From: Anaerolineales bacterium
GTDB lineage: Bacteria > Chloroflexota > Anaerolineae > Anaerolineales > UBA11579
Assembly: GCA_040902265.1 (NCBI GenBank)
Contig: JBBDXQ010000014.1
Location: forward strand, 1-49,138
Reading direction: 5' to 3'
DNA: 49,138 bases
The translations under genes were made by a program, and so were the position numbers. The notes under the pieces were generated by a model. It saw only the letters and a list, made by a program, of their open reading frames with translations. It did no database searches and had not been told where the DNA came from. This document shows, piece by piece, positions 5,885 through 31,636 of this stretch; within the stretch, counting starts at the first letter, position 1; every line of letters starts with the position of its first letter.

Positions 5885-7843
5885 ATGAAGGTACTGCTGA
5901 ACGGTGTGTTTTTTGCCTTGCTGGCGTTACTGCTTAGCCCTTTCGTTCCTAGTGCTTTGGCTGATGCAGCGCCTACATTTGCAATACCACAGGCAATACA
6001 GACTGATCAGATATATCATAAATACTATACAACTTGGTGGGATAACGAAAATGGAAAAATGTGGTTGCAATCATATGATCCTGATACTGGTGAATTAGTC
6101 AATATAGGCGTTATCCCTGGTGTAAAGACGAACGCTCAAGGTGAGGGCACCTATGATGCCGAGAATGGCTATTATGTGTTTACCACCAATCTAGGTTTAA
6201 CAGTTGTTGATATCAAGGATGCCTCTGTCGTAAATAGATTCCCACCAAGTTTACTTGCATATGAGTACAGTAACGAAAAAAAGGTAATCTATGGAATTAG
6301 AGAAGATGTCGAACTGCATAAATTAAAGTTGAGTTCAATTGATCTTAAAACGAACGAATTAATAGATATTGGTATTCTTCCCTTTCAAGTCAATTCTGTG
6401 GCGCAAGGCGAATCTACGTTCGATCAAGTACACGGCTATTACATATTTCATCATGCCGGGGGTAGTGTAGTAATCGTCGACACTCGAGATGCTTCCATTG
6501 TCAAAAGCTTTCAATTTTTAGGCAATGCTGAATATGATCCTGTTCAAGATCTATATTTCGGAATTGTTGAGAACCTGTGGGGGGAGGATCTATCTCTAGC
6601 TTCTTTTGATCTTAAAACTGGCGAAATCAGTGAGATTGGTACTATCCAAAACATTAAGCATTATCCGCAAGGAATCTCTACATATGATCCGGACCACGGT
6701 TATTATATGTTTAAAGGATTAACAAATTCGTTCTTTCCATATTACGTTATTGTTGATACTCGGGATGCCTCGATTGTCCACAAGTTTAATGTGGACACGA
6801 ACATTGTCGGTCTGCATCTAAGCCCTTATAAGATTGCTGCCCCTGCAAAAGATATTTTCAATCAATCAAAGGGAGGAAGTAACCCTGAGTATGCCTACAA
6901 GCTTCCAGAGAATGTACCTCAAGAAAAAGAAAACAGCAATTTGCCAAACACGTATCGTGTCCTGATTGACAACAACGGCGGGAGTTTCAGTGCTTTCAAA
7001 GTACTAGTAAAACTACCTGATGGAATTATCCCCGATGGCTATTCCAGCTGCCATTTGTCTATCCAGGTTAATGCGGAAAGCAATATACCATCTGGGTTTA
7101 CAACTGGTGTTGAAATCTACAATATTTCTATTCGGTGCGAACTAGGATATCTAAGTACCTTCACACACCCCATCACCGTTTGCCTTCTTCCGGAAATAGG
7201 TTCCACCAACAATATGCTGGTGTTCCACCAGCAGTCACCCAATGGGGCTTACTCACCCTTGCCTCTGGTAAGTGGTTCGGCGGGATATGTGTGTGGGACT
7301 ACCAACCATCTATCTAACTTCACCTTGGGTAACGTGAGCTTGCCCAATACTGGTTTTGCTCCTGATCGGGAAACAAGCTTGAGTGATCGATCCAAGTCAT
7401 TGGCTTACTTGGAGACTTCCTTGACTCTCATAATCCCCAAATTGGGTCTAGAAATGCCTATTGTGGGTGTTCCCCTCGCCGCTGGTGGTTGGGACACCAC
7501 ATGGCTTTACAACCAAGCAGGTTACCTAGAAACGACCGCGTTCCCTACCCAAGCTGGCAATACAGTACTGACTGGCCACGTTTGGGATGCCAATAATATT
7601 CCCGGTCCATTGGTGTATCTGAGTGATCTACAGTATAGCGATCAAATAATCATCAGTGCTTGGGGCATGGAGTATACCTATGAGGTTCGAACCTCTCGCT
7701 TAGTAAGCTCCTGGAATATGAGCGTAATGGGTCATAAAGACCTTGATTGGGTCACCCTTATCACGTGTGAAGGGTTTAATGAAAGCAGTAACAGCTACCT
7801 TTATCGGCGGGCTGTTCAGGCCGTGTTGGTGGGCGTGAAATAA
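5885..7843 (+). CDS. Secreted beta-propeller-repeat protein fused to LPNTG motif and C-terminal sortase domain
   Basis: Signal peptide from ATG 5885 (MKVLLNG...SALA); three repeats of about 90 aa ending V(V/I)VD(I/T)(K/R)DAS(V/I)V; LPNTG at 7340-7354; sortase catalytic GH, TLITC and R. The track start at 5807 is probably too long. Confidence 0.85.
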   Translation: MKVLLNGVFFALLALLLSPFVPSALADAAPTFAIPQAIQTDQIYHKYYTTWWDNENGKMWLQSYDPDTGELVNIGVIPGVKTNAQGEGTYDAENGYYVFTTNLGLTVVDIKDASVVNRFPPSLLAYEYSNEKKVIYGIREDVELHKLKLSSIDLKTNELIDIGILPFQVNSVAQGESTFDQVHGYYIFHHAGGSVVIVDTRDASIVKSFQFLGNAEYDPVQDLYFGIVENLWGEDLSLASFDLKTGEISEIGTIQNIKHYPQGISTYDPDHGYYMFKGLTNSFFPYYVIVDTRDASIVHKFNVDTNIVGLHLSPYKIAAPAKDIFNQSKGGSNPEYAYKLPENVPQEKENSNLPNTYRVLIDNNGGSFSAFKVLVKLPDGIIPDGYSSCHLSIQVNAESNIPSGFTTGVEIYNISIRCELGYLSTFTHPITVCLLPEIGSTNNMLVFHQQSPNGAYSPLPLVSGSAGYVCGTTNHLSNFTLGNVSLPNTGFAPDRETSLSDRSKSLAYLETSLTLIIPKLGLEMPIVGVPLAAGGWDTTWLYNQAGYLETTAFPTQAGNTVLTGHVWDANNIPGPLVYLSDLQYSDQIIISAWGMEYTYEVRTSRLVSSWNMSVMGHKDLDWVTLITCEGFNESSNSYLYRRAVQAVLVGVK

Positions 7844-7913
7844 ACTATAAATTGATTGATAGATGCCATAGCGAAGATCAGCGAATCGTCGCGACGGGGG
7901 GTCTAGAGAGCCA

Positions 7914-7942
7914 TTGACTTGCCTTAAGCGCTCCAATAGAAT
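7914..7942 (+). promoter_or_regulatory. Sigma70-type promoter for the S8 protease gene
   Basis: TTGACT (7914-7919), 17 bp, TAGAAT (7937-7942). Confidence 0.75.
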
Positions 7943-8054
7943 TACATGGTTAGCGCCGTTAGGCCGGCTATTTTTAGTAAGGCTCCTCAGATGAGGAACC
8001 CTGACCTGCAAGGAGATCATCATCTTTAAATTCACCTCAAAATACACCCTCGCA

Positions 8055-9596
8055 TTGAATTACATCATGGCGATCAGCCTTCTGGTCGGCCTCTTTGCTT
8101 TCAACCCGCATAGTCTGATCTTGGCAAAGGCAGCTTCTGGTTCGCCAAATGTTGCCCTCCAGGAAGCCACCGACCTGCCAACCGACGTCCCCACCGACAC
8201 GGAGACCCCTCTCCCAACCGAGACGGGTACACCAACTCCTACGGAAGAAAGCCAGCTTCCCACCGAAACCTCGTCACCCACCCCAACCTCTCAGCCAACC
8301 GCAACCTCTCAGCCAACCGCCACGTTAACCCCCACCCCGCCCCCCTCACCTACCTCCACCCAAACTCCTCACCCGGAGCTCCAGGGTGGCTTCCAGGCCG
8401 AGCTGATCATCCCGCAGGGCGTGCAACTTGTTCCAAATTCCTACATCGTAGTCTTTAAACCCGGCGTCAATTTGGCGCTGGCGGTCAGCAACGATCGCGC
8501 TCGCATCCAAAGCCTTGGAGGCGAGATCACCTTCACCTACACAGCCGCCTTGCAGGGGTATGCCGCCATCCTGTCGGGCCAAGCGCTTCGGGAAGTCAGG
8601 GCCAATCCGCTGGTCGATTACGTTACCGCCGATGGGATCATCTCCTTGGATGATACTCAGCAAATTGAAAATACTGCCACCCAGTCCAACCCGACCTGGG
8701 GTTTGGACCGCATCGACCAGCGCAACCTGCCGATTAACTCCACTTATATTTACAATAACGTCGCCCCCCGCGTGCATGTCTATGTGCTCGACACCGGCAT
8801 CTATATCCAACATAACGAATTTGGCGGGCGCGCCAATAAAGTATTCGACGCCTTCGAGAATGTGAAGACGGGCAACGATTGCCACGGGCACGGCACCCAT
8901 GTGGCCGCAACCATCGGCGGCACCAAATATGGCGTTGCCAAAAGGGTCAGGTTACACGCCGTCAGGGTCTTGAATTGTTTTGGGTCGGGTACCTATTCAG
9001 GCGTGATCGCCGGGGTGGATTGGGTTACCAAGCATCATGTAAAACCCGCGGTGGCCAACATGAGTCTGGGAGGCTTCAAACCGCCTCTCGTCTTGGACAC
9101 TGCAATTAAAAAATCCATCAAGGCTGGGGTGGTCTATGTGGTCGCCGCTGGGAATTCAAACGCCAACGCCTGCTCCTATTCGCCCGCCCGAGTGCCGCCC
9201 GCCATCACCGTCGGCGCAACCACAGCCAGCGATGCCCGCGCTTCCTTTTCGAACTGGGGCGCCTGCCTCGACATTTTTGCACCCGGACAAAGCATTACTT
9301 CCGCCTGGATCGGGTCCAAGAACGCCACCAACACCATCAGCGGCACCTCAATGGCTTCGCCCCACGTAGCTGGTGTCGCCGCCCTTTACCTCACCAGGAA
9401 CCCCTTGGCCAAGCCCGCCCAGGTCGCTAACGTGCTTATCAAGGGTTCCTCCCCCAACCGGGTCAAGAACCCAGCCGGGTCGCCAAACCGCCTCCTTTTT
9501 TCTCGCTTTGGCCTGTTAGCTTCCGCTCTATCCGAACAGTGGTTCGTCGCTTCCCTGCCCGCCTGGTGGGAAGAACCGCTCGATGTTTTCAACTAG
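8055..9596 (+). CDS. Secreted S8 subtilase (aqualysin/proteinase K-like) with Pro/Thr linker and I9 propeptide
   Basis: Triad motifs VLDTG, HGTHVA, GTSMASPHVAG; WGLDRIDQR; I9-like YIVVFK. True start may be ATC at 8022. Confidence 0.95.
   Translation: MNYIMAISLLVGLFAFNPHSLILAKAASGSPNVALQEATDLPTDVPTDTETPLPTETGTPTPTEESQLPTETSSPTPTSQPTATSQPTATLTPTPPPSPTSTQTPHPELQGGFQAELIIPQGVQLVPNSYIVVFKPGVNLALAVSNDRARIQSLGGEITFTYTAALQGYAAILSGQALREVRANPLVDYVTADGIISLDDTQQIENTATQSNPTWGLDRIDQRNLPINSTYIYNNVAPRVHVYVLDTGIYIQHNEFGGRANKVFDAFENVKTGNDCHGHGTHVAATIGGTKYGVAKRVRLHAVRVLNCFGSGTYSGVIAGVDWVTKHHVKPAVANMSLGGFKPPLVLDTAIKKSIKAGVVYVVAAGNSNANACSYSPARVPPAITVGATTASDARASFSNWGACLDIFAPGQSITSAWIGSKNATNTISGTSMASPHVAGVAALYLTRNPLAKPAQVANVLIKGSSPNRVKNPAGSPNRLLFSRFGLLASALSEQWFVASLPAWWEEPLDVFN
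8284..8319 (+). repeat. Perfect 18-bp tandem duplication within Pro/Thr linker
   Basis: CAACCTCTCAGCCAACCG twice, encoding TSQPTA twice. Confidence 0.9.
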
Positions 9597-9612
9597 TCTC
9601 CCTTAGTACTCC

Positions 9613-9643
9613 GGAGGCAAGGTCTAAGACTCTCCCTGCCTCC
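9613..9643 (+). terminator. Hairpin after S8 gene (no U-tract)
   Basis: GGAGGCA...TGCCTCC inverted repeat 16 nt after the stop. Confidence 0.35.
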
Positions 9644-9676
9644 CTGAAACCAGCCCGAAATGCTGCGCTAGGGTCA

Positions 9677-9705
9677 TTGACAGGGGGTGTGAATAGGTCT
9701 ACCAT
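9677..9705 (+). promoter_or_regulatory. Sigma70-type promoter for the lipoprotein-M4 protease pair
   Basis: TTGACA (9677-9682), 17 bp, TACCAT (9700-9705). Confidence 0.75.
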
Positions 9706-9849
9706 ATGTGTCTACTGGTGACGCGCGTCACAAATCATGGGGAATAACGCACTATCTGTCTTACTTCCTCACATTCGCCCGGAGTATTTGTATTGCCTGC
9801 TTGCTGTTAACCGGCCTTCCCCGGTTACGAAAGGCTTAGGGCGAATCCG

Positions 9850-10302
9850 ATGCGGGTTGCACTTGTCTCCATTCTGATAGCTGCCGGCCTAAGTGCCTGC
9901 ACTCTCCCAGATCCCGCCTCCGGCATTCCGGAATCGTGGCATCTTTCCCTTGAAGTTAGCGGCGGCCTCGCCGGTATCCATCGCCAACTGACGCTTTCAA
10001 GCCTCGGGGAACTTGTCGCCACCGACCACAACACCGCAACCGTCGTAGCTCTCCAGATTTCCGCAGCTGAACTCATTGAGGTTGCCAACCTGGTCTCGCG
10101 CATCCAGCTCGCAGCTACCGCTCCAGCGGGGTCCCTGCCGCCCTGCAACGATTGCTTTGAGTACACCCTCGGCATCTCCTTGGGCCGTGAACAGATCGAA
10201 ATAGTCGCAAATGATATCTCCCTGGCAGATTCACCCTTTGCGCCTCTGGTCAGCAAATTGAATGACTTGTTACAAAAAGCGCTTACTGGCGATGTTGATT
10301 AG
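9850..10302 (+). CDS. Lipoprotein with emfourin (protealysin inhibitor, M4in)-like domain
   Basis: Lipobox LSAC (Cys17); SGGLAG and DCFEY match emfourin SGGFAG and DxFxY as recalled; immediately upstream of an M4 peptidase. Confidence 0.65.
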   Translation: MRVALVSILIAAGLSACTLPDPASGIPESWHLSLEVSGGLAGIHRQLTLSSLGELVATDHNTATVVALQISAAELIEVANLVSRIQLAATAPAGSLPPCNDCFEYTLGISLGREQIEIVANDISLADSPFAPLVSKLNDLLQKALTGDVD

Positions 10303-17319: not shown

Positions 17320-18774
<1,455 letters not shown>

Positions 18775-18776
18775 GC

Positions 18777-20294
18777 TTAGGGCAAAGCCGCGGTGGAGTT
18801 CTGGAAAATCGTTAAGAATTGTTCAACAGTCGGGTGTATTAGGTCAAAGAACGGCTTGGGATACAGACCGATCCAAAAGATGAGCACCAACAGCGGAATG
18901 ATGATGGCTAATTCGCGCCAGCTCAAGTCTTTAAGCTTTTCGTTGGCCTTCTTAGTTACCGGCCCGAGGAACATGGCCTGGAACATATAGAGGATGTAGA
19001 CCGCGGCCAGAATAACGCCGAAGGCGGCGATCACCGTGTACCAGATCGAGCCTAACGAGCCGCCCGCCTGCCCGGCGCCCCAGGCACCTAAAAGAATGGT
19101 GAACTCACCGACGAAACCGTTGAGCCCTGGCAGACCCATTGACGACAGACTGACGATCAGGGTGATGGCTGCATACACCGGCATCACTTGCCACAGGCCG
19201 CCGAACTCTTCCAAATCACGCGTGTGGCGCCGCTCATAAATAAAACCCACGATCAAAAACAAAGCGCCGGTACTGATGCCATGGTTCACCATCTGCAGGA
19301 TAGCGCCCTCAATACCCTGTGCGTTGAGCGCAAAGAGACCCAACATCACGAACCCCAAGTGGCTAATGGAGGAATAAGCTACCAATTTCTTTACATCCTT
19401 TTGCGAGAAGGAAACGATAGCCCCATAAATAATACCGATGACCGCCAGAGTCGCCATGGCGGGCGCAAGCTGCACCGCCGCCTGCGGGAACATGGGCAGG
19501 TTGAAACGCAGGAAGCCATAGGTGCCCATCTTCAGGAGCACGCCGGCCAGGATGACCGACCCAGCTGTAGGCGCTTGCACATGGGCATCCGGCAACCAGG
19601 AATGCAGGGGCCACATGGGCACTTTGATGGCGAAGGCTGCAGCGAAAGCCAGGAAGAGCCAATATTGGACGTCTCCGGGAATCCCACCCAGAGCCACCAG
19701 GTCGGGTACATAGAAGGTGCCCTGGTTGATGCCGAGCCAAAGGATAGCCAATAGCATCAGGATAGAACCAGCCATGGTGTACAGGAAGAATTTGATCGCG
19801 GCATACATACGTTGGCTGCCGCCCCAGATGCCGATCAGGAAGTACATGGGCACCAGAGTGAACTCCCAGAAGATATAGAACAAGAACAAGTCCTGCGCAA
19901 GAAAAACGCCAATCATGCCAACTTCCAGCAGAAGGAAGAACAACATGAAATCTCGCACCCGGTCCTCCACCGCGTTCCACGTCGACAGGATAGAGACGGG
20001 CGCCAGGAAAGTGGTCAGGAGCACCAGCAGTACGCTGAGGCCATCGATGCCCAAGGCATACTTGATGTTCCAGCCCGCCACCTGGATCCAATCGCGGTTG
20101 ACGACCAGTTGCAGCTCAGCGTTATTCGAGTCGAACAGGCTAAGCACCCACAACGAGATACCGAAGGTGATGAGCGAGGCACCCAGCGCCACCCAGCGAG
20201 CCAGGTCCTTGCGCTCCTTCAAAAAGAGCAGGGCAAGGACACCAAGCAGCGGAAAGAAGGTAACCAGGTTTAAAGGTTGCAGAATAAAGTCCAT
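18777..20294 (-). CDS. nuoM: NADH-quinone oxidoreductase subunit M
   Basis: FYIFWE, KFFLYT, KVPMWPLHSWLPDAH, LLKMGTYG, GFVGEF. Confidence 0.97.
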   Translation of the reverse strand: MDFILQPLNLVTFFPLLGVLALLFLKERKDLARWVALGASLITFGISLWVLSLFDSNNAELQLVVNRDWIQVAGWNIKYALGIDGLSVLLVLLTTFLAPVSILSTWNAVEDRVRDFMLFFLLLEVGMIGVFLAQDLFLFYIFWEFTLVPMYFLIGIWGGSQRMYAAIKFFLYTMAGSILMLLAILWLGINQGTFYVPDLVALGGIPGDVQYWLFLAFAAAFAIKVPMWPLHSWLPDAHVQAPTAGSVILAGVLLKMGTYGFLRFNLPMFPQAAVQLAPAMATLAVIGIIYGAIVSFSQKDVKKLVAYSSISHLGFVMLGLFALNAQGIEGAILQMVNHGISTGALFLIVGFIYERRHTRDLEEFGGLWQVMPVYAAITLIVSLSSMGLPGLNGFVGEFTILLGAWGAGQAGGSLGSIWYTVIAAFGVILAAVYILYMFQAMFLGPVTKKANEKLKDLSWRELAIIIPLLVLIFWIGLYPKPFFDLIHPTVEQFLTIFQNSTAALP

Positions 20295-20302
20295 ATCAAT
20301 CC

Positions 20303-22378
20303 TCAGCTAGAAAATACCAGGTATCCGAGCATAAGCACCACGCCCAGGAAGGTGACCAGCGCGTAATTGCGTACAAAGCCGGTTTGGAAGAAACTCAGAC
20401 CTCTGGCCAGGCCGGTAGTGGTGGCTGCCAGACCATTGGCTATGCCATCGATGACACCAAGGTCAACCGGGTTTGCCAGGAAACGCGCCAGCCATTGGAA
20501 ACTGTTTACGATGAGGCTGTCGTGCACCCAATCGTGCCAAAACTTCCAGTCGACCACATTGGCCAGGAAGGCGGCCAGGCGCTGGTAAGGCTGGATGATC
20601 AGCCAGGCATACAACTCATCCACCCACCACTTATTTTCCATGCCCACGAACAAAGCTCCTAACCGCGCCTTAAGCGGATCGGTTTGGTCTGCCTTAAGTG
20701 GCTGGCGCCCGTACAGAGTCCAGGCTAAATAAATTGCACCAAGCGCCAACAGGGTGGAGAGCAGGGCTACGATCAGGCTGAACTCTGTAACGTGGGCTAA
20801 GTCATGCCCCAGTGTGTGTTCGAGCCAATCGGTGAACCAGTGCAGGCCGGGTAAATTGATCAGGCCGCCGAAAATGGAGAGTACCGCGAGAGCCACCAGG
20901 GGTAAAGTAACAACGCGCGGGCTTTCCACGGCTTTCTTGGCTGGATTGGAGCGCGCTTCACCAAAAAACACCAGCAGCACCTGGCGACCCATATAGAAGG
21001 CGGTGAGGAACGCGGCTGCGGTGAGCAAGACATAGACAAAGGGATTAGCCAGCAACGCGTCCGTCAAAATTTCGTCTTTAGAAAAGAAACCAGCCAGGGG
21101 CGGCAAGCCCGCCAAGGCCAGCGCGCCGACCAGGTAAACCCAAAAGGTCAGCGGGATCTGCTGTCGCAACCCGCCCATGCCGCGCATGTCCTGTGGGTCG
21201 AAGTGGGCTGCGTGAGCCTCTGGCTTAGCATGATGAGCGCCATTGCCGTCGATGGGATGGTGGGCGCGCTCGAGCGCCAGGATCACTGAGCCGGAGCCAA
21301 GGAAGAGTAGCGCCTTGAAGAAGGCGTGGGTGACCAAATGAAACATGCCAGCCACAAAAGCGCCCATGCCCACCGCAGCCACCATGAATCCCAATTGGCT
21401 GACGGTGGAATATGCCAACACCTTCTTTATGTCGGATTGGCCCACTGCGATGGTGGCAGCGAACAGCGCGGTCAGTCCGCCCACCACTGCCACGGTAGTC
21501 TGGGCGGCGGGCACCGCGACAAATAACGGCGCGGAGCGAGCCACCAGATACACGCCGGCAGTCACCATGGTGGCCGCATGAATCAGCGCCGAAACCGGGG
21601 TTGGGCCGGCCATGGCATCCGGAAGCCAAACGTAGAGGGGCAGCTGGGCTGATTTGCCGGTGACGCCCAGCAGCATGGCCAGGGTGATGAACAAGATGAT
21701 CCAGGGTGCAACGGACTCGGCCTGCGGCAGCACCGCGTCAAAGTTTAGCGAGCCAAACGCCCAAAAGATCATCATCATGGCTAGCAGGAACCCAAAATCA
21801 CCCACACGGTTAGCAATGAAGGCTTTCTTGGCAGCCTGTGCGTTCAATGTGCCAAACTTACCATCAGGATTGCGTGAATACCAGAAGCCAATCAACAGGA
21901 AGGAGCAAAGACCCACGCCTTCCCAACCGACGAAGAGCATCAGGTAGCTATCGCCGCTTACCAGGATCATCATGGCGGCGATGAATAAGTTCAAATAAAC
22001 GAAGAAGCGAGCGTAACTGGCGGTGTCTTCCTTGTAGCGGACATCGTAGTGCATATAACCAGCGGCGTAAATATGGATCAGCGTGCCCACCGAGGAGACC
22101 ACTAGCATCATGGTCACCGACAAGGTGTCCACGCGGAAAGCCCAAGGGACTTGCAGCACGCCGATATTGATCCAATCGCCGAGGCTGACCACCTCGCCTT
22201 CGGGATGCGCGTTGAGTGCCAGGAACTGAAGCACCGAGACGACGAACGCCCCAGTGGAAGCAGCGATGGCGATCAGCGCCGCGCCGCGCTCGCCCACCCG
22301 GCGGCCAATGGCTGCGTTGAGCAGTAAGCCGATGACTGGCAGGAATACTATCCAGGGGACCAGGTTGAACATTTCCAC
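20303..22378 (-). CDS. nuoL: NADH-quinone oxidoreductase subunit L (extended lateral helix)
   Basis: GWEGVGLCS, NRVGDFG, GKSAQLPL, AMAGPTPVSALIHAATMV, HAFFKALLF. Confidence 0.97.
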   Translation of the reverse strand: MEMFNLVPWIVFLPVIGLLLNAAIGRRVGERGAALIAIAASTGAFVVSVLQFLALNAHPEGEVVSLGDWINIGVLQVPWAFRVDTLSVTMMLVVSSVGTLIHIYAAGYMHYDVRYKEDTASYARFFVYLNLFIAAMMILVSGDSYLMLFVGWEGVGLCSFLLIGFWYSRNPDGKFGTLNAQAAKKAFIANRVGDFGFLLAMMMIFWAFGSLNFDAVLPQAESVAPWIILFITLAMLLGVTGKSAQLPLYVWLPDAMAGPTPVSALIHAATMVTAGVYLVARSAPLFVAVPAAQTTVAVVGGLTALFAATIAVGQSDIKKVLAYSTVSQLGFMVAAVGMGAFVAGMFHLVTHAFFKALLFLGSGSVILALERAHHPIDGNGAHHAKPEAHAAHFDPQDMRGMGGLRQQIPLTFWVYLVGALALAGLPPLAGFFSKDEILTDALLANPFVYVLLTAAAFLTAFYMGRQVLLVFFGEARSNPAKKAVESPRVVTLPLVALAVLSIFGGLINLPGLHWFTDWLEHTLGHDLAHVTEFSLIVALLSTLLALGAIYLAWTLYGRQPLKADQTDPLKARLGALFVGMENKWWVDELYAWLIIQPYQRLAAFLANVVDWKFWHDWVHDSLIVNSFQWLARFLANPVDLGVIDGIANGLAATTTGLARGLSFFQTGFVRNYALVTFLGVVLMLGYLVFSS

Positions 22379-22390
22379 GATTGTTCCCGG

Positions 22391-22693
22391 TTAGCCTTTC
22401 AGACTGCTGATCTCATCGATGTCAATGCTTTGCTTGGAGCGGAAGATGGCCACGATCAGCGCCAGACCCACAGCCACCTCAGCCGCGGCTACGGCGATCA
22501 CGAAAAACACATAGATCTGACCGTTGAGGGCTTCATAGCTGCGCGCAAATGCCACGAAGAGCAAGTTAGCGGCGTTCAGCATTAATTCCACCGACATGAA
22601 GATAATGATGGCATTGCGGCGAATGAGCACACCCAGCGCACCCAGGGTAAACAGAATTGCAGAGAGCGCGAAGTAATACGAAACGGGCACCAT
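22391..22693 (-). CDS. nuoK: NADH-quinone oxidoreductase subunit K
   Basis: [17 protein letters not shown]. Confidence 0.97.
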
Positions 22694-22694
22694 G

Positions 22695-23210
22695 CTAATC
22701 CGCCTTCTTACGTTCTTCTTTGGTCAGGACGATCACACCCACCATGGCGACCAACAAGAGCACGGAGGTGACTTCAAATGGCAGCAGGAAATCGGTGAAC
22801 AGGGTTTCGCCAATGGCTTGCGGGCTTGCGTAGTTCGAAGCTGCCGGCTCGATCACCGCGCTCAACGCGCCGCGACCGAATATCAGATAACCGGTTTCAA
22901 TAATCAATACCAAAGCCAACAGAATAGCAATTGGGCGCTGCCAGCCGCCCTTTTGGCGCTCCTGGACCTGCTCAGCGCCTAACAGCATGATGACGAAGAG
23001 GAACAGCACCATGATGGCGCCGGCATATACAGTGACCTGAGCCATGGCTATAAAGGGCGCGCCTAGCAACAGGAAGAAAACCGCCACGGTGGCAAAATTC
23101 AATATAAGGAATAGTGCCGAATACACCGCATTGCGGCTGAGCAGCATGGCTATGGCGGCACTTACTGCCACTGCGGCCAAACCGAAGAACAATATGAGGT
23201 CGACAGTCAT
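22695..23210 (-). CDS. nuoJ: NADH-quinone oxidoreductase subunit J
   Basis: [21 protein letters not shown]. Confidence 0.96.
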
Positions 23211-23212
23211 AA

Positions 23213-23719
23213 CTAATCCGGGTTCTTCATCACAGGTATGGAGCGGTCGAACATGCCAGGTTCCACTTGCTGTGGAGTGGTTTTGCCGCCCGGCGGCGCG
23301 GCTTCCAGCAGCTTTTCGCGGGTGTAGATGGATTGCGAGCGATCGGTGAAGGAGAGTTCGTAGTTATCGCCCAGAATGATAGCTTCAGTCGGGCAGGCGT
23401 CTTCGCAATAACCACAGAAGATGCAGCGCAGCATATTGATCTCGTAGGTGCTGGCATAGCGCTCGCCTGGTGAAAAGCGGGCCGCGTCGGTGTTCTCTGA
23501 AGCCTCCACAAAGATAGCGTCGGCAGGGCAGGCCGCAGCGCACAACGAGCAACCGATACACTTTTCCAGGCCATTTTCATAGCGTTTGAGCACATGGCGG
23601 CCTTTGAAACGCTGGCGCACTGGGCGCTTGACCTCAGGGTATTGGTAGGTCTTAGGCCTCTCAAACATGGCCTTGAATGTGACCCACATCCCCTTGAGCA
23701 CTTCTAATAGGCCGCCCAT
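23213..23719 (-). CDS. nuoI: NADH-quinone oxidoreductase subunit I
   Basis: Two CxxCxxCxxxCP motifs; YPE. Confidence 0.97.
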   Translation of the reverse strand: MGGLLEVLKGMWVTFKAMFERPKTYQYPEVKRPVRQRFKGRHVLKRYENGLEKCIGCSLCAAACPADAIFVEASENTDAARFSPGERYASTYEINMLRCIFCGYCEDACPTEAIILGDNYELSFTDRSQSIYTREKLLEAAPPGGKTTPQQVEPGMFDRSIPVMKNPD

Positions 23720-24723
23720 CAGAGTCCAAACACCACGATGACCACCGCGGTCAGGAACACATTGGCTAACGCCAACGGGAGCAATACTTTCCAGCCAAAA
23801 CTCATCAGGCGGTCATAACGCAGGCGCGGCAGGGTTGCCCGGATCCAGATCATGATTCCCAAACTTATTACGATCTTGGCGAGCAGATAGATAGGGCCAA
23901 GCAGCGGAAACTGGTCTATAAAGGGACCGCGAAAACCGCCCAGGAATAGCGTGGCAAAAATGGCGCTCACCGCGGCCATCTTAATGTACTCGCCCATGAA
24001 GAATAAGGCGAACTTCATGCCCGAGTATTCCGTGTGATACCCGGCAGTCAGTTCCTGCTCCGCTTCGGGCATATCGAAGGGGGAGCGATTCACTTCAGCC
24101 AGGGCGGCTACGTAGAAGATAAAGGCGCCGATGGGCTGCAGCAGGATGTACCAGAGGCCGCGCTGCGCGTCGACGATATCGACCATGCTCATCGAGCCGG
24201 CCAACAGGATGGGTCCCACGAAAGACAGGCCAAGCGCCAATTCATAACTTACCATCTGGGCAGAGGAACGCAGACCACCCATCATGGAATATTTATTATT
24301 CGAGGACCACCCCGCCAACACGATGCCATAAACTGAAATTGAAGCCACCGAAAGGATGTAGAGAACGGCAACATTGATATCGGCGATCCCTAGTAGGATT
24401 GTGCGCCCGAATAATTCGATGCTGCTGCCCCAGGGAACCACCGCCATAATGACCAGAGCGGGGACCACGGTAATGATCGGGGCTAAAATAAAAATGGCTT
24501 TGTAAGCCTTCGCCGGGATCAACTCTTCTTTGAAGATCAATTTGATCCCATCCGCCAGAGGCTGCAGTAACCCCCAGGGTCCCACGCGGTTTGGCCCGAT
24601 ACGCACCTGGATGCGGGCAGCCAGTTTGCGTTCATACAAAGTGGTGTAGGCAAAGCCGGTCACCAGGATGGCGAGCAATATGCCGCTCTTCACCACCCAC
24701 TCCACGATCAGCCAAAGATCCAT
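23719..24723 (-). CDS. nuoH: NADH-quinone oxidoreductase subunit H
   Basis: ERK...[32 protein letters not shown]. Confidence 0.97.
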
Positions 24724-27263
24724 TAGCGCTCCACCGTCACGGAGGTTGGCACGCTGATGGGCAAACCCACGCTGCGCGGAATGAGAACCACCCCTTTAGG
24801 CAGGCTATTGTCGATGTGCGCGGTCACGGTAGATTGGGTGCCGTTCAGAGTCAGCTTGGCTGATGTGCCCGGCTCCAGGCTCAGACGTTCGGCATCCTCG
24901 GGATTAAGCACCACTTGGGGAGCTTGCAACCGAGCGCCGAGTAACTTGGATGTCACTACGGTATTCCCTCGGTCATATAAGCGATTGATAGGCACGGCCA
25001 CCAGACCTTCGCGCGCCCCGCCTTCCGACAGGGCGGTGAAGGCCAGTGCTGGATTATGACCGCGTTCGGCGGCGCTGCTCAATTGCACGCCAAGGCCTTG
25101 GCTATTTTCGTAGGTGGTGCCGCCATAATACATATCCTGGCGGCCAACAATAGGCCACTGCTCGGTTACCTGTGCTAATTTTCCATAATCCAGATCATTG
25201 TAGGCTTCGGTGACAGGCGCCAGTTGCTTGAAGACCAGCGAGGCCAGTTTGACTTCAAGATCCAAACCAATTACCGCGGCTAACTGGGCGGTAATGCTAA
25301 AATCGGCGCGAGCCTCACCAGAAGCCGACACCGCAGGGTAGTAACGCTGCACGCGGCGCTCACCCGAAGTGGTGCTGCCCTCGCGTTCCGTAAACGCCTG
25401 GGCGGGCAGCACGATATCGGCAGCCTGCGCTGTCTTGGTGAGGGCCAGTTCCTGTACGATGACGAATTGGGCTGCGTCCACCGCGGCAGCCAGTTGCGGA
25501 TCATCGCCCGCCGGGTCAGCGCCGACAATATAGAGCACACTGGCTTCCTTCAACTTTGAGGACAACTCCGCGCTAGGGTGCAGATCCTGATCCCAAGCCC
25601 CTTGGACATTGCCCTTGTCCCACACCGGCACCAGACCGTTACTCGCCCGTCCCACATGGCCGGTAGCGATCAGCAGATTGGCGGCCGCGTTGGCCAGCGC
25701 TTGCGAAGCAATCAGATCAGTGCCCTCACTGCCATAAAACACGATCAGGTTTTCAGCCTGTGAAAGATCCTGGGCGGCGGCTTTCAATTCATCACCGCGC
25801 AATAATTTCTTTACTGTTTCCGGCTGGTCCGGACGTTTGGGTGAAAAGCTATCCAGTATGGCATACAGCAGAGCGGCCTCTTCGCCAACACCATATCGCA
25901 GCACATAGTTGGCCGAACGATCCAGCTTGGTGCGCCGCAGGTTGGCCACAACTAGAGTTGCGCCGCGTTCGGCGGCCTGCTTGACGCGCAGCCACCACAA
26001 AGGCGCTTCCTCTTCAAGGTCGCTGGCGATCACCAGAATGGCAGAACCAGCGCCCAGGTCGCCCAGATTGGTGCCGGTGCCCAAACCCACTTGCGCCACC
26101 AGGTCTCCGCCGGCCATGTTGCTGTACAGCAAAGCAGAACCATTGGCTTTGCTGCTTAGCTGCCTGATCTGAAAATAATCTTCATTGCTCAAGCGCCCGC
26201 CGGCCAGGCTAACCAATTTACTACCGGCGTCCTTAACCTTGGCCGCCGCGGCCGCCAGGGCTTCATCCCAGGAAACAGGTGTAAGCTGGCCGCCCTTACG
26301 CAACATCGGTTGGGTGACACGATTCTCAGCCTCGGTGTAGTGATAAGCAAAGCGGCCCTTGTCGCAGATCCAGATCTCGTTTACTTGCTCATTCTGGCGC
26401 GGCATCACACGTTTCACTACTTGGTGGCCGCCTGCCTTGGCTTCCCGCCGGGTATTAAGCGTGGTATTGCAATTAACCGGGCAATGGGTGCAGATGGAAG
26501 CGACCGGCTTCAGTTCCCACGGCCGTGAACCAAAACGGAAATCGGCGGTGGTCAGCGCACCCACCGGACAAATATCCGTGGTGTTCCCGGACCAGTACGA
26601 ATCGAAACCCGGCTCCGAGAACGTGATTATCTCCAGGGCGCGCCCGCGTTGGGAGAAGCCAATCACCGGGTCATCCACCAGCTCGGTTTGGAAGCGCGTG
26701 CAGCGCGCGCATTGGATGCAACGCTCGCGGTCCAGGAAGATCAGCTCACCCAGAGGCACATGTTTATCCAGGCGCTTCTTTTCGGAGTAGATATAGCGGC
26801 TGCTCCCAGGCCCAAAACGCATGGTCAGGTTCTGCAGCGGGCACTCGCCTCCTTTGTCGCAGATCGGGCAATCCAGTGGGTGCGAGGTGAGTAGGAACTC
26901 CAATACCTCGCCGCGAGCTGCCTTTACTTTTTCGGTGTAACCGCGCACCACCATGCCTTCGGCCACCGGCACCGTGCAACCCGTTTCTAGCTTGGAGGCA
27001 AATTGGACCTGCAGAGTACCATCCTCCGCCAGCACAGGTTGGCCGGTGGCACGGTCGGTAACCGGGCGGCCGACTTCTACCAGGCACATGCGGCACATAC
27101 CCACCGGCTCCATCTTAGGGTGATAACAAAATACTGGGATATCAATGCCAGCCTGTTTGGCGGCATCCACCACCAGAGTGCCTGGCTTCACTTTGATCTC
27201 GAGATCGTCAATGGTCAGAGTAACCAGTTGCTCAACAGCTTGGGTGGCAATCAGGTCGCTCAT
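24723..27263 (-). CDS. nuoG: NADH-quinone oxidoreductase subunit G (with N7 cluster motif)
   Basis: CYHP..CRMC (N1b), HPLDCPICDKGGEC (N5), CIQCARC..C (N4), CTHCPVNC..C (N7). Confidence 0.96.
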   Translation of the reverse strand: MSDLIATQAVEQLVTLTIDDLEIKVKPGTLVVDAAKQAGIDIPVFCYHPKMEPVGMCRMCLVEVGRPVTDRATGQPVLAEDGTLQVQFASKLETGCTVPVAEGMVVRGYTEKVKAARGEVLEFLLTSHPLDCPICDKGGECPLQNLTMRFGPGSSRYIYSEKKRLDKHVPLGELIFLDRERCIQCARCTRFQTELVDDPVIGFSQRGRALEIITFSEPGFDSYWSGNTTDICPVGALTTADFRFGSRPWELKPVASICTHCPVNCNTTLNTRREAKAGGHQVVKRVMPRQNEQVNEIWICDKGRFAYHYTEAENRVTQPMLRKGGQLTPVSWDEALAAAAAKVKDAGSKLVSLAGGRLSNEDYFQIRQLSSKANGSALLYSNMAGGDLVAQVGLGTGTNLGDLGAGSAILVIASDLEEEAPLWWLRVKQAAERGATLVVANLRRTKLDRSANYVLRYGVGEEAALLYAILDSFSPKRPDQPETVKKLLRGDELKAAAQDLSQAENLIVFYGSEGTDLIASQALANAAANLLIATGHVGRASNGLVPVWDKGNVQGAWDQDLHPSAELSSKLKEASVLYIVGADPAGDDPQLAAAVDAAQFVIVQELALTKTAQAADIVLPAQAFTEREGSTTSGERRVQRYYPAVSASGEARADFSITAQLAAVIGLDLEVKLASLVFKQLAPVTEAYNDLDYGKLAQVTEQWPIVGRQDMYYGGTTYENSQGLGVQLSSAAERGHNPALAFTALSEGGAREGLVAVPINRLYDRGNTVVTSKLLGARLQAPQVVLNPEDAERLSLEPGTSAKLTLNGTQSTVTAHIDNSLPKGVVLIPRSVGLPISVPTSVTVER

Positions 27264-27264
27264 C

Positions 27265-28545
27265 TCAAGCGCTCACTTTGTTTGTCGCGGCCACCGGCGC
27301 CACCTGGGTTTTGGCTTCGAAGTCGCTGCGGAAACGTTCGATGCTAGAGGTCACAGCCTCAGTGGCAAAATCACCCAAAGCGCAAAGGCATTTACCCTTA
27401 ATGCTGGTAGCAACTTCATTCAATAGAATTACGTCGCTCCAATTCGCACCGCCGCCATGAATGCGCTCGGTTAGGTGCTTCATCCAATAAGTGCCTTCGC
27501 GGCAGGGGGTGCACTTGCCGCATGACTCGTGCTGAAAGAAATGCATGGTTTTGTTGATCAGCCAATCCATGCTGACCGAATCGTCAATGACGATCACCGA
27601 TGCAGAACCCAGCATGGCGCCTACACTGGGCACGTTCTCGTAATCCATAGGGGTATCCAGGGCTTTATCGTCGGCCACGATCAATGAGGACGAAGCGCCA
27701 GCGGGCATGATGGCTTTGATCTTGCGCCCGCCAGGGATGCCGCCTCCATGGGTAAAGATCAATTCGCGGAAGGTAGCGCCCAGTGGTAATTCGTAGTTGC
27801 CGGGCTTCTCCACGTTGCCGCACAGGCTGAACACTTTGGTGCCTGGGCTTTTTTCCGTACCGAAAGTGCGGAACCATTCAGCGCCGCGCTCGAGGATCAG
27901 CGGCACGCTCGCCAGGGTTTCCACATTATTCACTACGGTGGGCTTGCCATACAACCCGAAGCTGGGAGGGAACGGCGGGCGCAGCCGTGGCTGCCCCAGC
28001 TTACCTTCCAACGATTCGAGCAAGGCGGTCTCTTCGCCGCAGATGTAAGCGCCGGCGCCCAGGTGGGTATAGATGCGCAGGCCGTACTCGGTGCCGAACA
28101 GCTTTTCGCCCAATAAATTCTCGCGTTCCAAATACTCAATGTGTTTATCCAATTCGGCGGCCAGCTGCCAAAATTCACCGCGCAAATAAATGTAGGCAGT
28201 GTTGGCGCTGATGGCAAATGCGCACAGCATCACCCCTTCCAAAAATTGGAAGGGGTTGGATTCCATGATCTCGCGATCTTTGAATGTACCCGGCTCGGAC
28301 TCGTCGGCGTTCACCGCTACATAATGCGGCCAGTTCTTCATGTCAATGAATGACCATTTCAAACCGGTGGGGAAACCGGCTCCACCGCGGCCGCGCAAGC
28401 CTGAAGCCTTGACGATCTCGGTGACTTCGACCGGTTGCATGCTGGTCACCGCGCGCTGGAAGGTTTCAAAGCCCTTGTGCTGCCGGTAGATTGGCAGTTG
28501 GTCGATGTTGGCGATCTGGCGGTGGCGCAGCAGGATCTCGTTCAT
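27265..28545 (-). CDS. nuoF: NADH-quinone oxidoreductase subunit F
   Basis: GRGGAGFPTG, NADESEPG, YICGEETAL, ESCGKCTPCREG; real start ATG 28545 overlaps the nuoE stop (ATGA). Confidence 0.96.
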   Translation of the reverse strand: MNEILLRHRQIANIDQLPIYRQHKGFETFQRAVTSMQPVEVTEIVKASGLRGRGGAGFPTGLKWSFIDMKNWPHYVAVNADESEPGTFKDREIMESNPFQFLEGVMLCAFAISANTAYIYLRGEFWQLAAELDKHIEYLERENLLGEKLFGTEYGLRIYTHLGAGAYICGEETALLESLEGKLGQPRLRPPFPPSFGLYGKPTVVNNVETLASVPLILERGAEWFRTFGTEKSPGTKVFSLCGNVEKPGNYELPLGATFRELIFTHGGGIPGGRKIKAIMPAGASSSLIVADDKALDTPMDYENVPSVGAMLGSASVIVIDDSVSMDWLINKTMHFFQHESCGKCTPCREGTYWMKHLTERIHGGGANWSDVILLNEVATSIKGKCLCALGDFATEAVTSSIERFRSDFEAKTQVAPVAATNKVSA

Positions 28546-29045
28546 TTGCCGTTCCCCTGCCGCCAGCCCTGAACCAGCAGCATGGCGCGGTCCACGGTCT
28601 GTTCTTCGTGATAACTGATCTCGGAGCGGCTTTGCACCTGGAACACAGGAGCCCGATGGCAGGCTGCCAGACACATCACGGCTTCTACCGTAACTTGCCC
28701 GTCTGCGGTGGTTTCGCCGGGCTTCACCTCCAAACGCTGGCAGAGATGGTCGAGGAACACATCTGCACCGCGCAGAGCGCAAGGCAGATCGTTACATACC
28801 TGGATGCGATATTTCCCAGCGGGCTGGTCGTGGTACAGGGTATAAAAACCGACGATCGAAGCCACATCGGTGGAGGAAATGCCAAGGATCTCGCCGATCT
28901 GGTCCAACTGCTCACGAGTCACATATCCATGTTCACGCTGGGCTATGTAGAGCAGCGGCATGACTGCCGAGCGTTTCTGGTCTGGCGGGTACTTGGCCAG
29001 CACGCGCTCGATGTCTTCGTCATAGCGTTGGCGTAGTGCGTTCAT
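28542..29045 (-). CDS. nuoE: NADH-quinone oxidoreductase subunit E
   Basis: FYTLY, CNDLPC, CLAAC 2Fe-2S ligands. Confidence 0.96.
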   Translation of the reverse strand: MNALRQRYDEDIERVLAKYPPDQKRSAVMPLLYIAQREHGYVTREQLDQIGEILGISSTDVASIVGFYTLYHDQPAGKYRIQVCNDLPCALRGADVFLDHLCQRLEVKPGETTADGQVTVEAVMCLAACHRAPVFQVQSRSEISYHEEQTVDRAMLLVQGWRQGNGK

Positions 29046-30283
29046 CGGTCCACGTCTCCTAAAACGATGTCGACGCTGCCGATAATTGCCACCAGGTCGG
29101 CAACTAAATGGCCCTTGGAGAGCAGCGGCACGATTTGCAAGTTAATGAAGGACGGCGTTCGCCAATAGCAACGATAGGGGCGCGGACCGCCATCGCCTTC
29201 CAAAAACACGCCCAGTTCCCCGCGGGGGGACTCGACGGGGACATACACCGAAGCCCTTGGTGCTGGAAACCCTTCCGTCCATAGCTTGAAATGGTGGATC
29301 ACGGCCTCCATGCTGGTGCCTAATTCTGACCGCGGCGGAGGTACGAACTTGCGGTTATTGCTGCGCACCGACCCCTTAGGCAGCTTTTCCAGCGCCTGGT
29401 GCACGATGCGCAGCGACTGGCGGAACTCTTGCATGCGCACCCAATAGCGGGCGTACACGTCGCCTTCGGTGGCCACCGGTACGTCGAAGTCATATTGTTC
29501 GTAACCGGAATATGGCTCATCCTTGCGCAGGTCGTAAGCCAGTCCGGACGCGCGCAGGGGAGGGCCGGTGATCCCCCAGGCCACGCCGGTTTCAACGGAC
29601 ATCACGCCGATATCCTTGGTGCGGTCAAGGAATATGGGATTCTTACTTAACAGGGTTTCGTATTCGTCGACGCGCCGTGGGAAGTCGTCAATAAAATCGC
29701 GTACGGCAGCCTCAAAGCCATCGGGCACATCACGCCATAGGCCGCCTGGGCGAAAATAGGTGGTCATCATGCGCTGCCCTGAGCACATTTCCATAATGTC
29801 CAGAATTCGCTCGCGCTGATTGAAACAATAAAAGAACACGGACATGGCGGCCAGGTCTAGGGCATGTGTGCCCAGCCAGACCAAGTGCGATGAGATGCGC
29901 TGCAGTTCGGCAAATATCACGCGGATGGCCTGGGCACGCTCGGGCACATCCAGGTCCACCAATTTCTCCACCGCCAGGCAGTAAGCCAAGTTGTTACCCA
30001 TGGTATTGAGGTAGTCGAGGCGATCGGTCATTGTCTCTGATTTTTCATAGGTCTTGAATTCGATATTTTTCTCGATCCCGGTGTGCAGGTAGCCTACATC
30101 TGGGATGCAGGAGACCACGGTTTCGCCGTCTAGTTCCAGCAGCAGGCGCAGCACGCCATGCGTGCTGGGGTGCTGCGGACCCATGTTGAGCAGCATGGTC
30201 TCGCCTTCCATAGCACGGCTGGAGACCAGGTGGCGCAGTTCGTCGGTGGTGATTTCCAATTGCTGGATTGTCACGCCAATCAA
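29042..30283 (-). CDS. nuoD: NADH-quinone oxidoreductase subunit D
   Basis: NMGPQHPSTHGVLRL, DRLDY, ESPRGE, C-terminal GDVDR. Confidence 0.97.
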   Translation of the reverse strand: MIGVTIQQLEITTDELRHLVSSRAMEGETMLLNMGPQHPSTHGVLRLLLELDGETVVSCIPDVGYLHTGIEKNIEFKTYEKSETMTDRLDYLNTMGNNLAYCLAVEKLVDLDVPERAQAIRVIFAELQRISSHLVWLGTHALDLAAMSVFFYCFNQRERILDIMEMCSGQRMMTTYFRPGGLWRDVPDGFEAAVRDFIDDFPRRVDEYETLLSKNPIFLDRTKDIGVMSVETGVAWGITGPPLRASGLAYDLRKDEPYSGYEQYDFDVPVATEGDVYARYWVRMQEFRQSLRIVHQALEKLPKGSVRSNNRKFVPPPRSELGTSMEAVIHHFKLWTEGFPAPRASVYVPVESPRGELGVFLEGDGGPRPYRCYWRTPSFINLQIVPLLSKGHLVADLVAIIGSVDIVLGDVDR

Positions 30284-30792
30284 TCCTTCGGGCGCGGTTT
30301 GCGCTGTTCTATTTCTTCGAAGTTAAAACTGAACTGCACTTCTTCATATCCTAGCGGGTAATCCTTCCGCAGCGGATGCCCAACCCAATCCTCGGGCATC
30401 AGGATGCGGCGTAAGTCCGGGTGGTTCTTGATGCGCAGCCCAAACATATCCCAAAGCTCACGCTCATGCCAGTTGGCATTGGGAAAGACCGCGCAAATGC
30501 TTTCCAACTCGGGCTCATCCCCATCCAATGGCACACGCACTTCCAGGCGCAACTTTTGGGTTATATTCTTGAACTGGTATACAACATGGAAGCGTGGTTG
30601 GTGTTGGGGCCAATAGTCCACTGCACTCAACGCGGCCAGCATGTTGAAACCGTGCGCATCGCGCAGAGCTCTTGTGGCTTCCACAATTTGGCCGGGGGGC
30701 AGCAACAACGAAGCCTGGCCGCGGAATTCGCTGCCTGTGCTCCCAAAGGATGATTCTAAGTTCTGGATGATGGTCTGCAAGGCGCTATTCAT
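30280..30792 (-). CDS. nuoC: NADH-quinone oxidoreductase subunit C
   Basis: ERELWDMFG, HPDLRRIL, HPLRKDYP. Confidence 0.97.
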   Translation of the reverse strand: MNSALQTIIQNLESSFGSTGSEFRGQASLLLPPGQIVEATRALRDAHGFNMLAALSAVDYWPQHQPRFHVVYQFKNITQKLRLEVRVPLDGDEPELESICAVFPNANWHERELWDMFGLRIKNHPDLRRILMPEDWVGHPLRKDYPLGYEEVQFSFNFEEIEQRKPRPKD

Positions 30793-30806
30793 AGTAGGAA
30801 ACCCAA

Positions 30807-31289
30807 CTAAGCCCAGTCTCTGATCTTTTCGCCCCTTACCTTTTCGTGCAAGGTCATTATCCCGTGGATCAATGCTTCGGGGCGCGGCGGGCAGCCGGCC
30901 ACGTACACATCCACCGGCACAATCTCATCCACGCCCTGCACAATGGCGTAATTGTTGAAAACGCCGCCGCAGGAAGCGCAATCCCCCATGGAGACCACCC
31001 ATTTAGGCGCCGGCATCTGATCGTATAGGCGGCGCAAAACGGGCGCCATTTTGCGACTAAGGCGCCCGGCAACGATCATAAGGTCCGATTGGCGAGGGCT
31101 GGCGCGCATCAATTCCATACCGAAGCGGCTCATGTCGTAATCCGGCGCCTGAGAGCCCATCATCTCGATGGCGCAGCAGGCCAAACCGAAGAGCATGGGC
31201 CACATAGCACCGGTGCGGCCCCAGTTGACTACTTTTTCCAGTGAAGTGGTAACGATGCCCAGGTTCCCCAGCTTGCTTTCTATTCCCAA
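30807..31289 (-). CDS. nuoB: NADH-quinone oxidoreductase subunit B
   Basis: [28 protein letters not shown]; likely TTG start at 31289 (track gives 31310). Confidence 0.96.
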
Positions 31290-31636
31290 TCCAGAGCCCC
31301 CTTCTTCCAAGCATAGATATAACCAACCAGCAGAATGAGGATGAAGACGAACATCTCGATCAGGCCAAACACGCCCAGTTGGCGAAAAGTCACCGCCCAG
31401 GGTAGGAAGAAAACAACTTCAATGTCGAAGAGGATGAAGAGAACAGCCACAAGATAAAAACGCACCGGGAAACGGCGGGTGCCCGGCCCAATGGGCTTCA
31501 TGCCGGATTCGTATGTTGCCAGTTTGGCTTCAGTGGGGCGTTTGGGGCCAAAGAGATGCCCAATAACCACAACAGCAACCGCAAACCCGGTCGCAATAAT
31601 GATCAAGACAGCGATAGGAAGATAGTCTTGCAGCAT
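31280..31636 (-). CDS. nuoA: NADH-quinone oxidoreductase subunit A
   Basis: [19 protein letters not shown]. Confidence 0.97.

Follow-up and report, generated by a model that had tools for sequence, protein, structure and literature searches.

A tandem duplication of a lateral-helix module in the NuoL of a complex I operon with a single nuoM in Anaerolineales

The described enzymes that are closest to the one considered here are the complex I variants of the 2M type, the founding description of which is said to be that of Chadwick, Hemp, Fischer and Orphan in 2018. As defined in the passages on this type in PMC6606698, they combine a lengthened NuoL with a second NuoM. The sections of PMC9040806 that deal with NuoL give the insertion in the lateral helix (HL) of the Nitrospira NuoL as 26 aa, and argue that, in 2M enzymes, a lengthened HL should shift transmembrane helix 16 (TM16) by one subunit width. 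According to the same sections, the NuoL of Complex_I_1/2 in the Manganitrophaceae also has HL insertions, although extra pumps are not described for these complexes, for which Yu et al. (2022) offer two readings, namely that such a NuoL can house extra subunits or that it marks an evolutionary transition (PMC9040806). Here, we analyzed a stretch of 49,138 nt from an Anaerolineales genome, referred to in its entirety as the window (contig C14; the assembly comprises 1.8 Mb in 124 contigs, with a completeness of 86.5%). The nuoL gene of its 14-gene complex I operon encodes a NuoL, hereafter L1, in which HL contains an additional copy of its own first module, and the operon has one nuoM.

L1 carries a net insertion of 29 residues in HL. 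The helix contains two adjacent 29-residue units (Table 1), which are identical at 14/29 residues and give an ungapped BLOSUM62 score of 63, whereas the next best 29-mer elsewhere in L1 scores 8; none of 100,000 shuffles of unit 2 matched the observed score or identity. At the DNA level, 51 of the 87 bases agree, and the third codon positions are the least alike (14/29), indicating that the duplication is old. When the last 152 residues of L1 were searched against the PDB sequences, Thermus Nqo12 aligned from unit 2 onward only, and the single unit of Paracoccus NuoL matched the beginning of unit 1 and the latter half of unit 2, so that 29 residues of the query have no counterpart. Across 79 NuoL C-termini aligned with MAFFT (78 from public genomes and that of the window), the helix region, measured from the conserved HL start to the start of TM16, spans 63–66 residues in 55 sequences and 88–97 residues in 24, with none at 67–87, and that of L1 spans 93.

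A first-pass annotation of the window had proposed a 29-aa tandem repeat with 14/29 identities at 20459-20632. These coordinates are exact, with both units lying on the minus strand; translation of this interval on the plus strand is meaningless. Its count of 87 residues, from the valine of VDELY to the tyrosine of RNY, was right (residues 586–672), and the alignment that it recommended did reveal a net insertion (93 residues versus 63–66). Its likening of the insertion to that of the 2M type holds for the length class (29 aa here, versus the 26 aa that the cited sections of PMC9040806 give for Nitrospira). It had also described nuoL-M-N as contiguous and single and the NuoEFG module as retained, in agreement with the open reading frames (ORFs): nuoA-N form a contiguous operon at 17320-31636 on the minus strand, with one each of nuoL, nuoM and nuoN and with nuoE, nuoF and nuoG included.

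L1 is a NuoL by its core, which consists of Proton_antipo_M (PF00361, 1.4e-75) and the N-terminal NuoL/ND5 domain (PF00662, 9.4e-18), each scoring above the curated cut-off, and its best PDB sequence matches are NuoL/Nqo12/ND5 chains (E values from 1.9e-118 to 1e-101). The C-terminal extension formed by TM15, the lateral helix and TM16 is present, as seen from the helices of an AlphaFold2 (AF2) model and from the alignment to the Thermus, Paracoccus, cyanobacterial and mycobacterial chains. Compared with the canonical NuoL of E. coli (3rko/7z7r), Thermus (4he8), Mycobacterium (8e9g) and Paracoccus (8qby), L1 is 42–43% identical and shares the fold through TM15 and the start of HL, whereas it has one HL module more.

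The AF2 model of L1, built on 87 sequences (mean predicted local distance difference test score, pLDDT, of 90; predicted template modeling score, pTM, of 0.87), superposes on the NuoL chains at Z 50–54. A predicted helix at residues 535–557 is followed by the three helices listed in Table 1, with a helix break of pLDDT below 50 predicted at residues 637–641. The match with solved NuoL chains, whose HL stops directly ahead of TM16, does not go beyond residues 636–638 of the model; Thermus 4he8, for example, superposes over residues 1–583 of 605, a range ending just before the Thermus TM16. In the prediction, the insert forms neither a loop nor a hairpin, and a further helix and TM16 would sit beyond the end of the canonical helix.

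Compared with 2M complex I, the window operon encodes an HL that is longer by about one antiporter width (+29), and no second nuoM was found in the cassette; it is therefore not a 2M complex I by the published definition. The two share the addition of one HL module in the same helix region (29 aa in the window, 26 aa in the 2M case). Conversely, the window operon has one nuoM, has duplicated a different module and is a full 14-gene, NuoEFG-containing operon. As in Complex_I_1/2 of the Manganitrophaceae, an HL insertion accompanies a single nuoM, whereas those enzymes belong to the Nitrospirota and the window complex to a different phylum. Of five sampled NuoL proteins with a 2M-type insertion, L047 alone has M-M, and the other four (L055, L058, L068 and L086, with a helix region of 88–89 residues) show the mismatch with a single adjacent M; these four come from Binatia, Acidobacteriota and an unclassified bacterium. 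A mismatch of this kind is already known, being stated in the sections of PMC9040806 cited above. In the full-text searches made, this was the only source found for a long NuoL with a single NuoM, and none was found for Chloroflexota, though Chadwick 2018 and the supplements may contain one. What appears to be new here is the duplication of a different module, its order-wide occurrence in a NuoEFG-containing 14-gene operon, and its coexistence with a genuine 2M cluster whose NuoL helix is equally long.

The long helix was followed through the order with a profile of the 93-residue L1 helix, built from 18 sequences (A1), in 301 Anaerolineales genomes, all of which are at least 90% complete except that of the window. 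Matches were found in 256 of these genomes, 198 of them at E ≤ 1e-18 and essentially full length (1–93) and 58 of them weak, while 45 genomes had none. The full-length matches are free of gaps and spread over many families. Comparison of 18 orthologues reveals Asp, Trp and His positions that do not vary, both at the junction and inside the inserted unit, a pattern that speaks for selection acting on the new module. No second nuoM was found in 18 related operons, nor in 79 further loci retrieved with the helix profile (68 L-M-N, 7 L-M, 3 L only and 1 M-N), where the short L-M and L-only loci stop at the locus ends and some loci share contigs with the earlier set; all 80 loci retrieved come from uncultured or metagenome-derived assemblies. 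Most Anaerolineales carry an old duplication of module 1, fixed and conserved, in a 14-subunit complex I that includes NuoEFG.

The genome also contains a second complex I cluster. A PF00361 search of the assembly gave eight matches, three of which lie in the window. The others include genes on two contigs that form the locus pair L170/L171. Contig C64 (~21899-26203, plus strand) ends with nuoA2, H2, J2, K2 and L2, and L2 is cut by the contig end exactly where the lateral helix starts. Contig C72 (~19334-22661, minus strand) ends with what remains of a first M-type gene, a C-terminal fragment; another M-type gene, one of N type and atpB follow. The first-pass annotation, which suggested a search of the genome for further nuoM genes, was thus correct in calling the operon single, but did not notice that a second cluster holds more nuoM-type genes. 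Searches with L2 retrieved 80 loci from relatives, of which 71 have the intact cluster, with H2-J2-K2-L2 followed by two M-type genes, N2 and atpB, and 9 stop at a contig edge. The C64/C72 cluster is the described Chloroflexi 2M type (nuoA-H-J-K-L2-M-M-N). In that arrangement, according to the part of PMC7117926 that describes it, nuoB-CD-I are located elsewhere and nuoCD is fused. A NuoCD-like gene of 480–592 aa was present in four relatives that have the 2M cluster, and a second nuoB, nuoC, nuoD or nuoI, or a fused NuoCD, was not found in the window's 86.5%-complete assembly; the 2M cluster itself lacks nuoB, C, D, I, E, F and G. In two single-contig genomes of the same genus (G090 and G135), the two complex I clusters are ~55 kb apart.

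The NuoL of the second cluster, L2, is ~720–735 aa long and ~47% identical to L1 (tblastn), and its helix region spans 91–95 residues in the 69 of 79 proteins for which a measurement was possible. The window operon and the 2M cluster of the same genome thus share the organism, the enzyme family and the helix length, whereas they differ in having one and two M genes, respectively. For the L1 family, the self-similarity of the helix peaked at start 2 with an offset of 29 (mean 17.6, versus a highest value of −13.6 in 200 shuffles). For the L2 family, the peak was at start 28 with an offset of 27 (mean 8.4, versus −15.1 in shuffles). The two inserts differ in sequence, and these positions indicate that L1 repeats the first module and L2 a later one, suggesting that the two proteins reached equal helix length by duplicating different modules. 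In a profile comparison, the two helices aligned at 99% probability over 84 columns, with 8- and 7-column gaps at the inserts.

A profile of the L2 helix (A2, 2M-type) matched strongly in 227 of the 301 genomes. In a cross-tabulation for which the lists of weak A1 and A2 matches were transcribed by hand, so that small errors in the counts are possible, the long L1 and a 2M-type NuoL occurred together in 176 of the 197 other long-L1 genomes, the long L1 without a 2M-type NuoL in 21, and a 2M-type NuoL without the long L1 in 51. The window's genome joins the class with both, although the contig end removes the L2 helix.

A tree of 90 NuoL sequences separates the long-L1 clade from the L2 clade and places short-helix proteins (Thermoflexus and Ardenticatenaceae) as the closest outgroups of the former; a 25-sequence IQ-TREE phylogeny with the insert columns removed agrees with this tree. 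With the insert columns dropped, two short-helix proteins, L019 and L024, nest inside the long-L1 clade (Shimodaira–Hasegawa-like approximate likelihood-ratio supports, SH-aLRT, of 91 and 89). In the approximately unbiased (AU) test, a tree uniting all long-helix NuoL was not rejected (p 0.64), and this constrained tree scored higher. Secondary loss of the insert in L019 and L024 was considered and is not claimed, because the test does not reject their placement outside the long-L1 clade. What we do claim, as the trees suggest, is one origin of the L1 insertion. A common origin of the L1 and L2 insertions was also considered and is unlikely, as their profiles are gapped at the inserts and their clades lie apart on the trees.

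Another antiporter-like locus lies on contig C85 (~6720-10281, plus strand; locus L169:721-4282), where three adjoining genes encode membrane proteins of 509, 197 and 479 aa. The 479-aa protein is a divergent PF00361 member (1.1e-16), whose NuoN/NuoM/HyfF-like matches are weak and far under the cut-offs, and its 509- and 197-aa neighbors matched no Pfam or NCBIfam family. Of the 301 genomes, 295 have a C85-like gene, even some without any NuoL helix match; the gene thus does not track complex I. The locus looks like a conserved, putative antiporter-like module that is independent of complex I. The closed genomes G090 and G135 hold ten PF00361 genes in all, including the C85-like gene and, ~8 kb from it, a pair of MrpA-like (786–823 aa) and MrpD-like (525–540 aa) genes (e.g. 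G090:C1:636601-640763); this pair was not found in the window's own assembly.

The reading of the long L1 helix that we favor, to which we assign a probability of about 40%, is a membrane arm with four pumps in which one subunit of the operon, probably NuoM, is used twice, the fourth subunit being one that we infer. Double use of NuoM was among the options that the first-pass annotation had listed. HL would be a series of ~27–29-residue modules, one for each antiporter-like subunit that it passes. A third module, if helical, would add ~43 Å (29 × 1.5 Å) and move TM16 one subunit away, and the membrane arm would then hold four antiporter-like subunits. The fourth place would be filled by a second copy of an operon subunit, most likely NuoM (L-M-M-N), with the length of HL determining, as a ruler, how many copies are built in. 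Provided that each antiporter module moves one proton, as is usually assumed, such an NADH-linked complex I would pump five protons per NADH instead of four. Since neither a second M gene nor a consistent candidate encoded in trans was found, the use of one operon subunit twice is the simplest four-pump solution. The quantized HL lengths (55/79 at 63–66 and 24/79 at 88–97) and the equality of the L1 helix (93) with that of the NuoL from the two-M cluster (91–95) both support this reading. A broader proposal would make HL a modular ruler for the number of copies in which an antiporter subunit from a single gene enters the arm, and the enzyme of most Anaerolineales a one-nuoM, L-M-M-N, five-proton, NADH-oxidizing complex that arose without gene duplication, of which the 2M cluster in the same genomes would be the later, paralogue-fixed version; the stalk of ATP synthase, which contains b2 in some bacteria and b/b' in others, would be a parallel. 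This we put forward tentatively.

Several observations weigh against the double use of NuoM. To our knowledge, no complex I uses one antiporter gene twice. In the 18 orthologues, units 1 and 2 have distinct conserved signatures, with 3–14 of 29 residues identical between the units, a divergence that would not be the simplest expectation if both units docked onto identical copies of NuoM. The short-helix L019 and L024 are accompanied by a NuoM similar to that of the window (63–64% identical), and hence nothing in NuoM has yet been seen to go with the long helix. In addition, the AF2 confidence is low in the distal part (block pLDDT 52–78 for residues 590–691), and a monomer model cannot reveal what the helix rests on.

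The main rival is a conventional three-pump L-M-N arm in which the extra module is otherwise used, reaching past NuoN so that TM16 is anchored on the heel formed by NuoK/J/A/H, bulging along the surface of the membrane, or contacting lipid or another complex. In its favor, L, M and N are each encoded once per operon, the Trp/His signature that is invariant in the insert and unlike that of unit 1 could mark a new contact, and the predicted break at residues 637–641 would interrupt the helix. However, a three-pump arm leaves unexplained why the helix lengths are quantized with none at 67–87 and why L1 converges on the length of the NuoL from the two-M cluster, and the AF2 model does not loop the insert out. 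We regard this arrangement as somewhat less likely than the four-pump arm.

A fourth pump encoded in trans, i.e. an M subunit of the 2M cluster, an MrpD-type protein or the PF00361 protein of C85, corresponds to the recruitment of a subunit from elsewhere that the first-pass annotation had listed, and is disfavored. The window genome and 176 of the 197 other long-L1 genomes do carry the 2M cluster, and the closed genomes of the same genus are rich in PF00361 genes. However, the 21 genomes with the long L1 and without a 2M-type NuoL are all at least 90% complete, and one of them, G077 (4.1 Mb, 5 contigs, 95% complete), has just four PF00361 genes, namely L (719 aa), M, N and a C85-like gene, a set that is also found in G116. 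The C85 protein was rejected as the fourth subunit, being present in nearly all of the genomes regardless of the NuoL helix. Furthermore, the 2M cluster has a long NuoL of its own to go with its two M genes, and this NuoL occurs without the long L1 in the 51 genomes noted above. Taken together, a pump supplied in trans is improbable.

We consider it equally improbable that the fourth position is filled by one or more unrecognized, non-antiporter-like membrane proteins from outside the operon. Nothing direct speaks for such a filler, and no conserved extra membrane gene was found in or beside the window operon. The genes in the nuoM-nuoN gaps of relatives (L012, L026 and L028), which were tried as antiporters and rejected, are soluble-enzyme-like by translation reading, i.e. 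phosphoesterase-like and molybdopterin-oxidoreductase-like, and are not membrane proteins. Finally, although the HL of E. coli tolerates small insertions in mutagenesis and a related pair of NuoL proteins lacks the unit, the insert is very improbable as a functionless, tolerated helix or as the relic of a lost 2M state (the intermediate or relic of the earlier annotation), given the full-length, gap-free matches in 198 of 301 genomes across many families, the invariant residues inside the insert, the lack of intermediate helix lengths and the lack of any sign of a past second M in ~95 operons.

The positions of the operon genes and of the HL features are collected in Table 1. The Pfam scan covered L, M and N, and the other subunits were named from their translations, read by eye, and from gene order. 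The nuoL gene is placed between nuoK and nuoM, in a J-K-L-M-N order that is also seen in relatives, and nuoM begins 8 nt downstream of nuoL. In L1, residues 374–396 (21191-21259, minus strand) form a His-rich loop of ~23 residues, predicted as coil, between helices of the Proton_antipo_M core; when L1 is aligned by phmmer to NuoL chains from Paracoccus and mycobacteria, residues ~371–388 lie between the aligned stretches. The mechanically called ORF of nuoF (505 aa, TTG start) overlaps nuoE by ~240 nt and has an Arg/Ser/Pro-rich beginning. Its true start is probably a downstream Met, the overlap being a detail of ORF calling.

Table 1. Genes of the complex I operon and elements of the L1 lateral helix, in window coordinates
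Feature	Position	Strand	Basis
nuoN (N1), 484 aa	17320..18774	minus	PF00361 5.7e-70
nuoM (M1), 505 aa, sole M gene of the operon	18777..20294	minus	PF00361 2.5e-81
nuoL (L1), 691 aa, GTG start	20303..22378	minus	ORF; Pfam; PDB sequence matches
HL unit 1, residues 583-611, canonical first module	20546..20632	minus	aligns with the single first module of canonical NuoL
HL unit 2, residues 612-640, inserted copy of unit 1	20459..20545	minus	repeat identity; not in 55 canonical NuoL
Predicted continuous helix, residues 583-635, spanning both units	20474..20632	minus	DSSP on the AF2 model; block pLDDT 83-73
Last HL module, predicted helix, residues 643-665	20384..20452	minus	AF2, block pLDDT 52-76; aligns with the canonical second module
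TM16, C-terminal anchor helix, residues 669-690	20309..20374	minus	AF2; alignment to the final helix in Thermus Nqo12 and Paracoccus NuoL
Remainder of the 14-gene operon (nuoK, J, I, H, G, F, E, D, C, B, A)	22391..31636	minus	ORFs
nuoK	22391-22693	minus	ORF
nuoJ	22695-23210	minus	ORF
nuoI	23213-23719	minus	ORF
nuoH	23719-24723	minus	ORF
nuoG	24723-27263	minus	ORF
nuoF	within 27265-28782	minus	ORF
nuoE	28542-29045	minus	ORF
nuoD	29042-30283	minus	ORF
nuoC	30280-30792	minus	ORF
nuoB	30807-31310	minus	ORF
nuoA	31280-31636	minus	ORF

The proton-to-electron ratio of complex I depends on how many antiporter modules it has, and so does the energy that is conserved or that is needed for reverse electron flow. 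Four-pump enzymes have so far been recognized by the presence of two nuoM genes. Should a long clamp helix be a sufficient sign of four pumps, gene counts would underestimate such enzymes, across an order that is abundant in sediment, groundwater and wastewater, and the helix would serve as a ruler during assembly. Should the arm have three pumps instead, the conserved extra module would mark another contact or function of a helix whose part in coupling has long been debated. The coexisting 2M cluster, with its equal helix length, offers a natural internal comparison.

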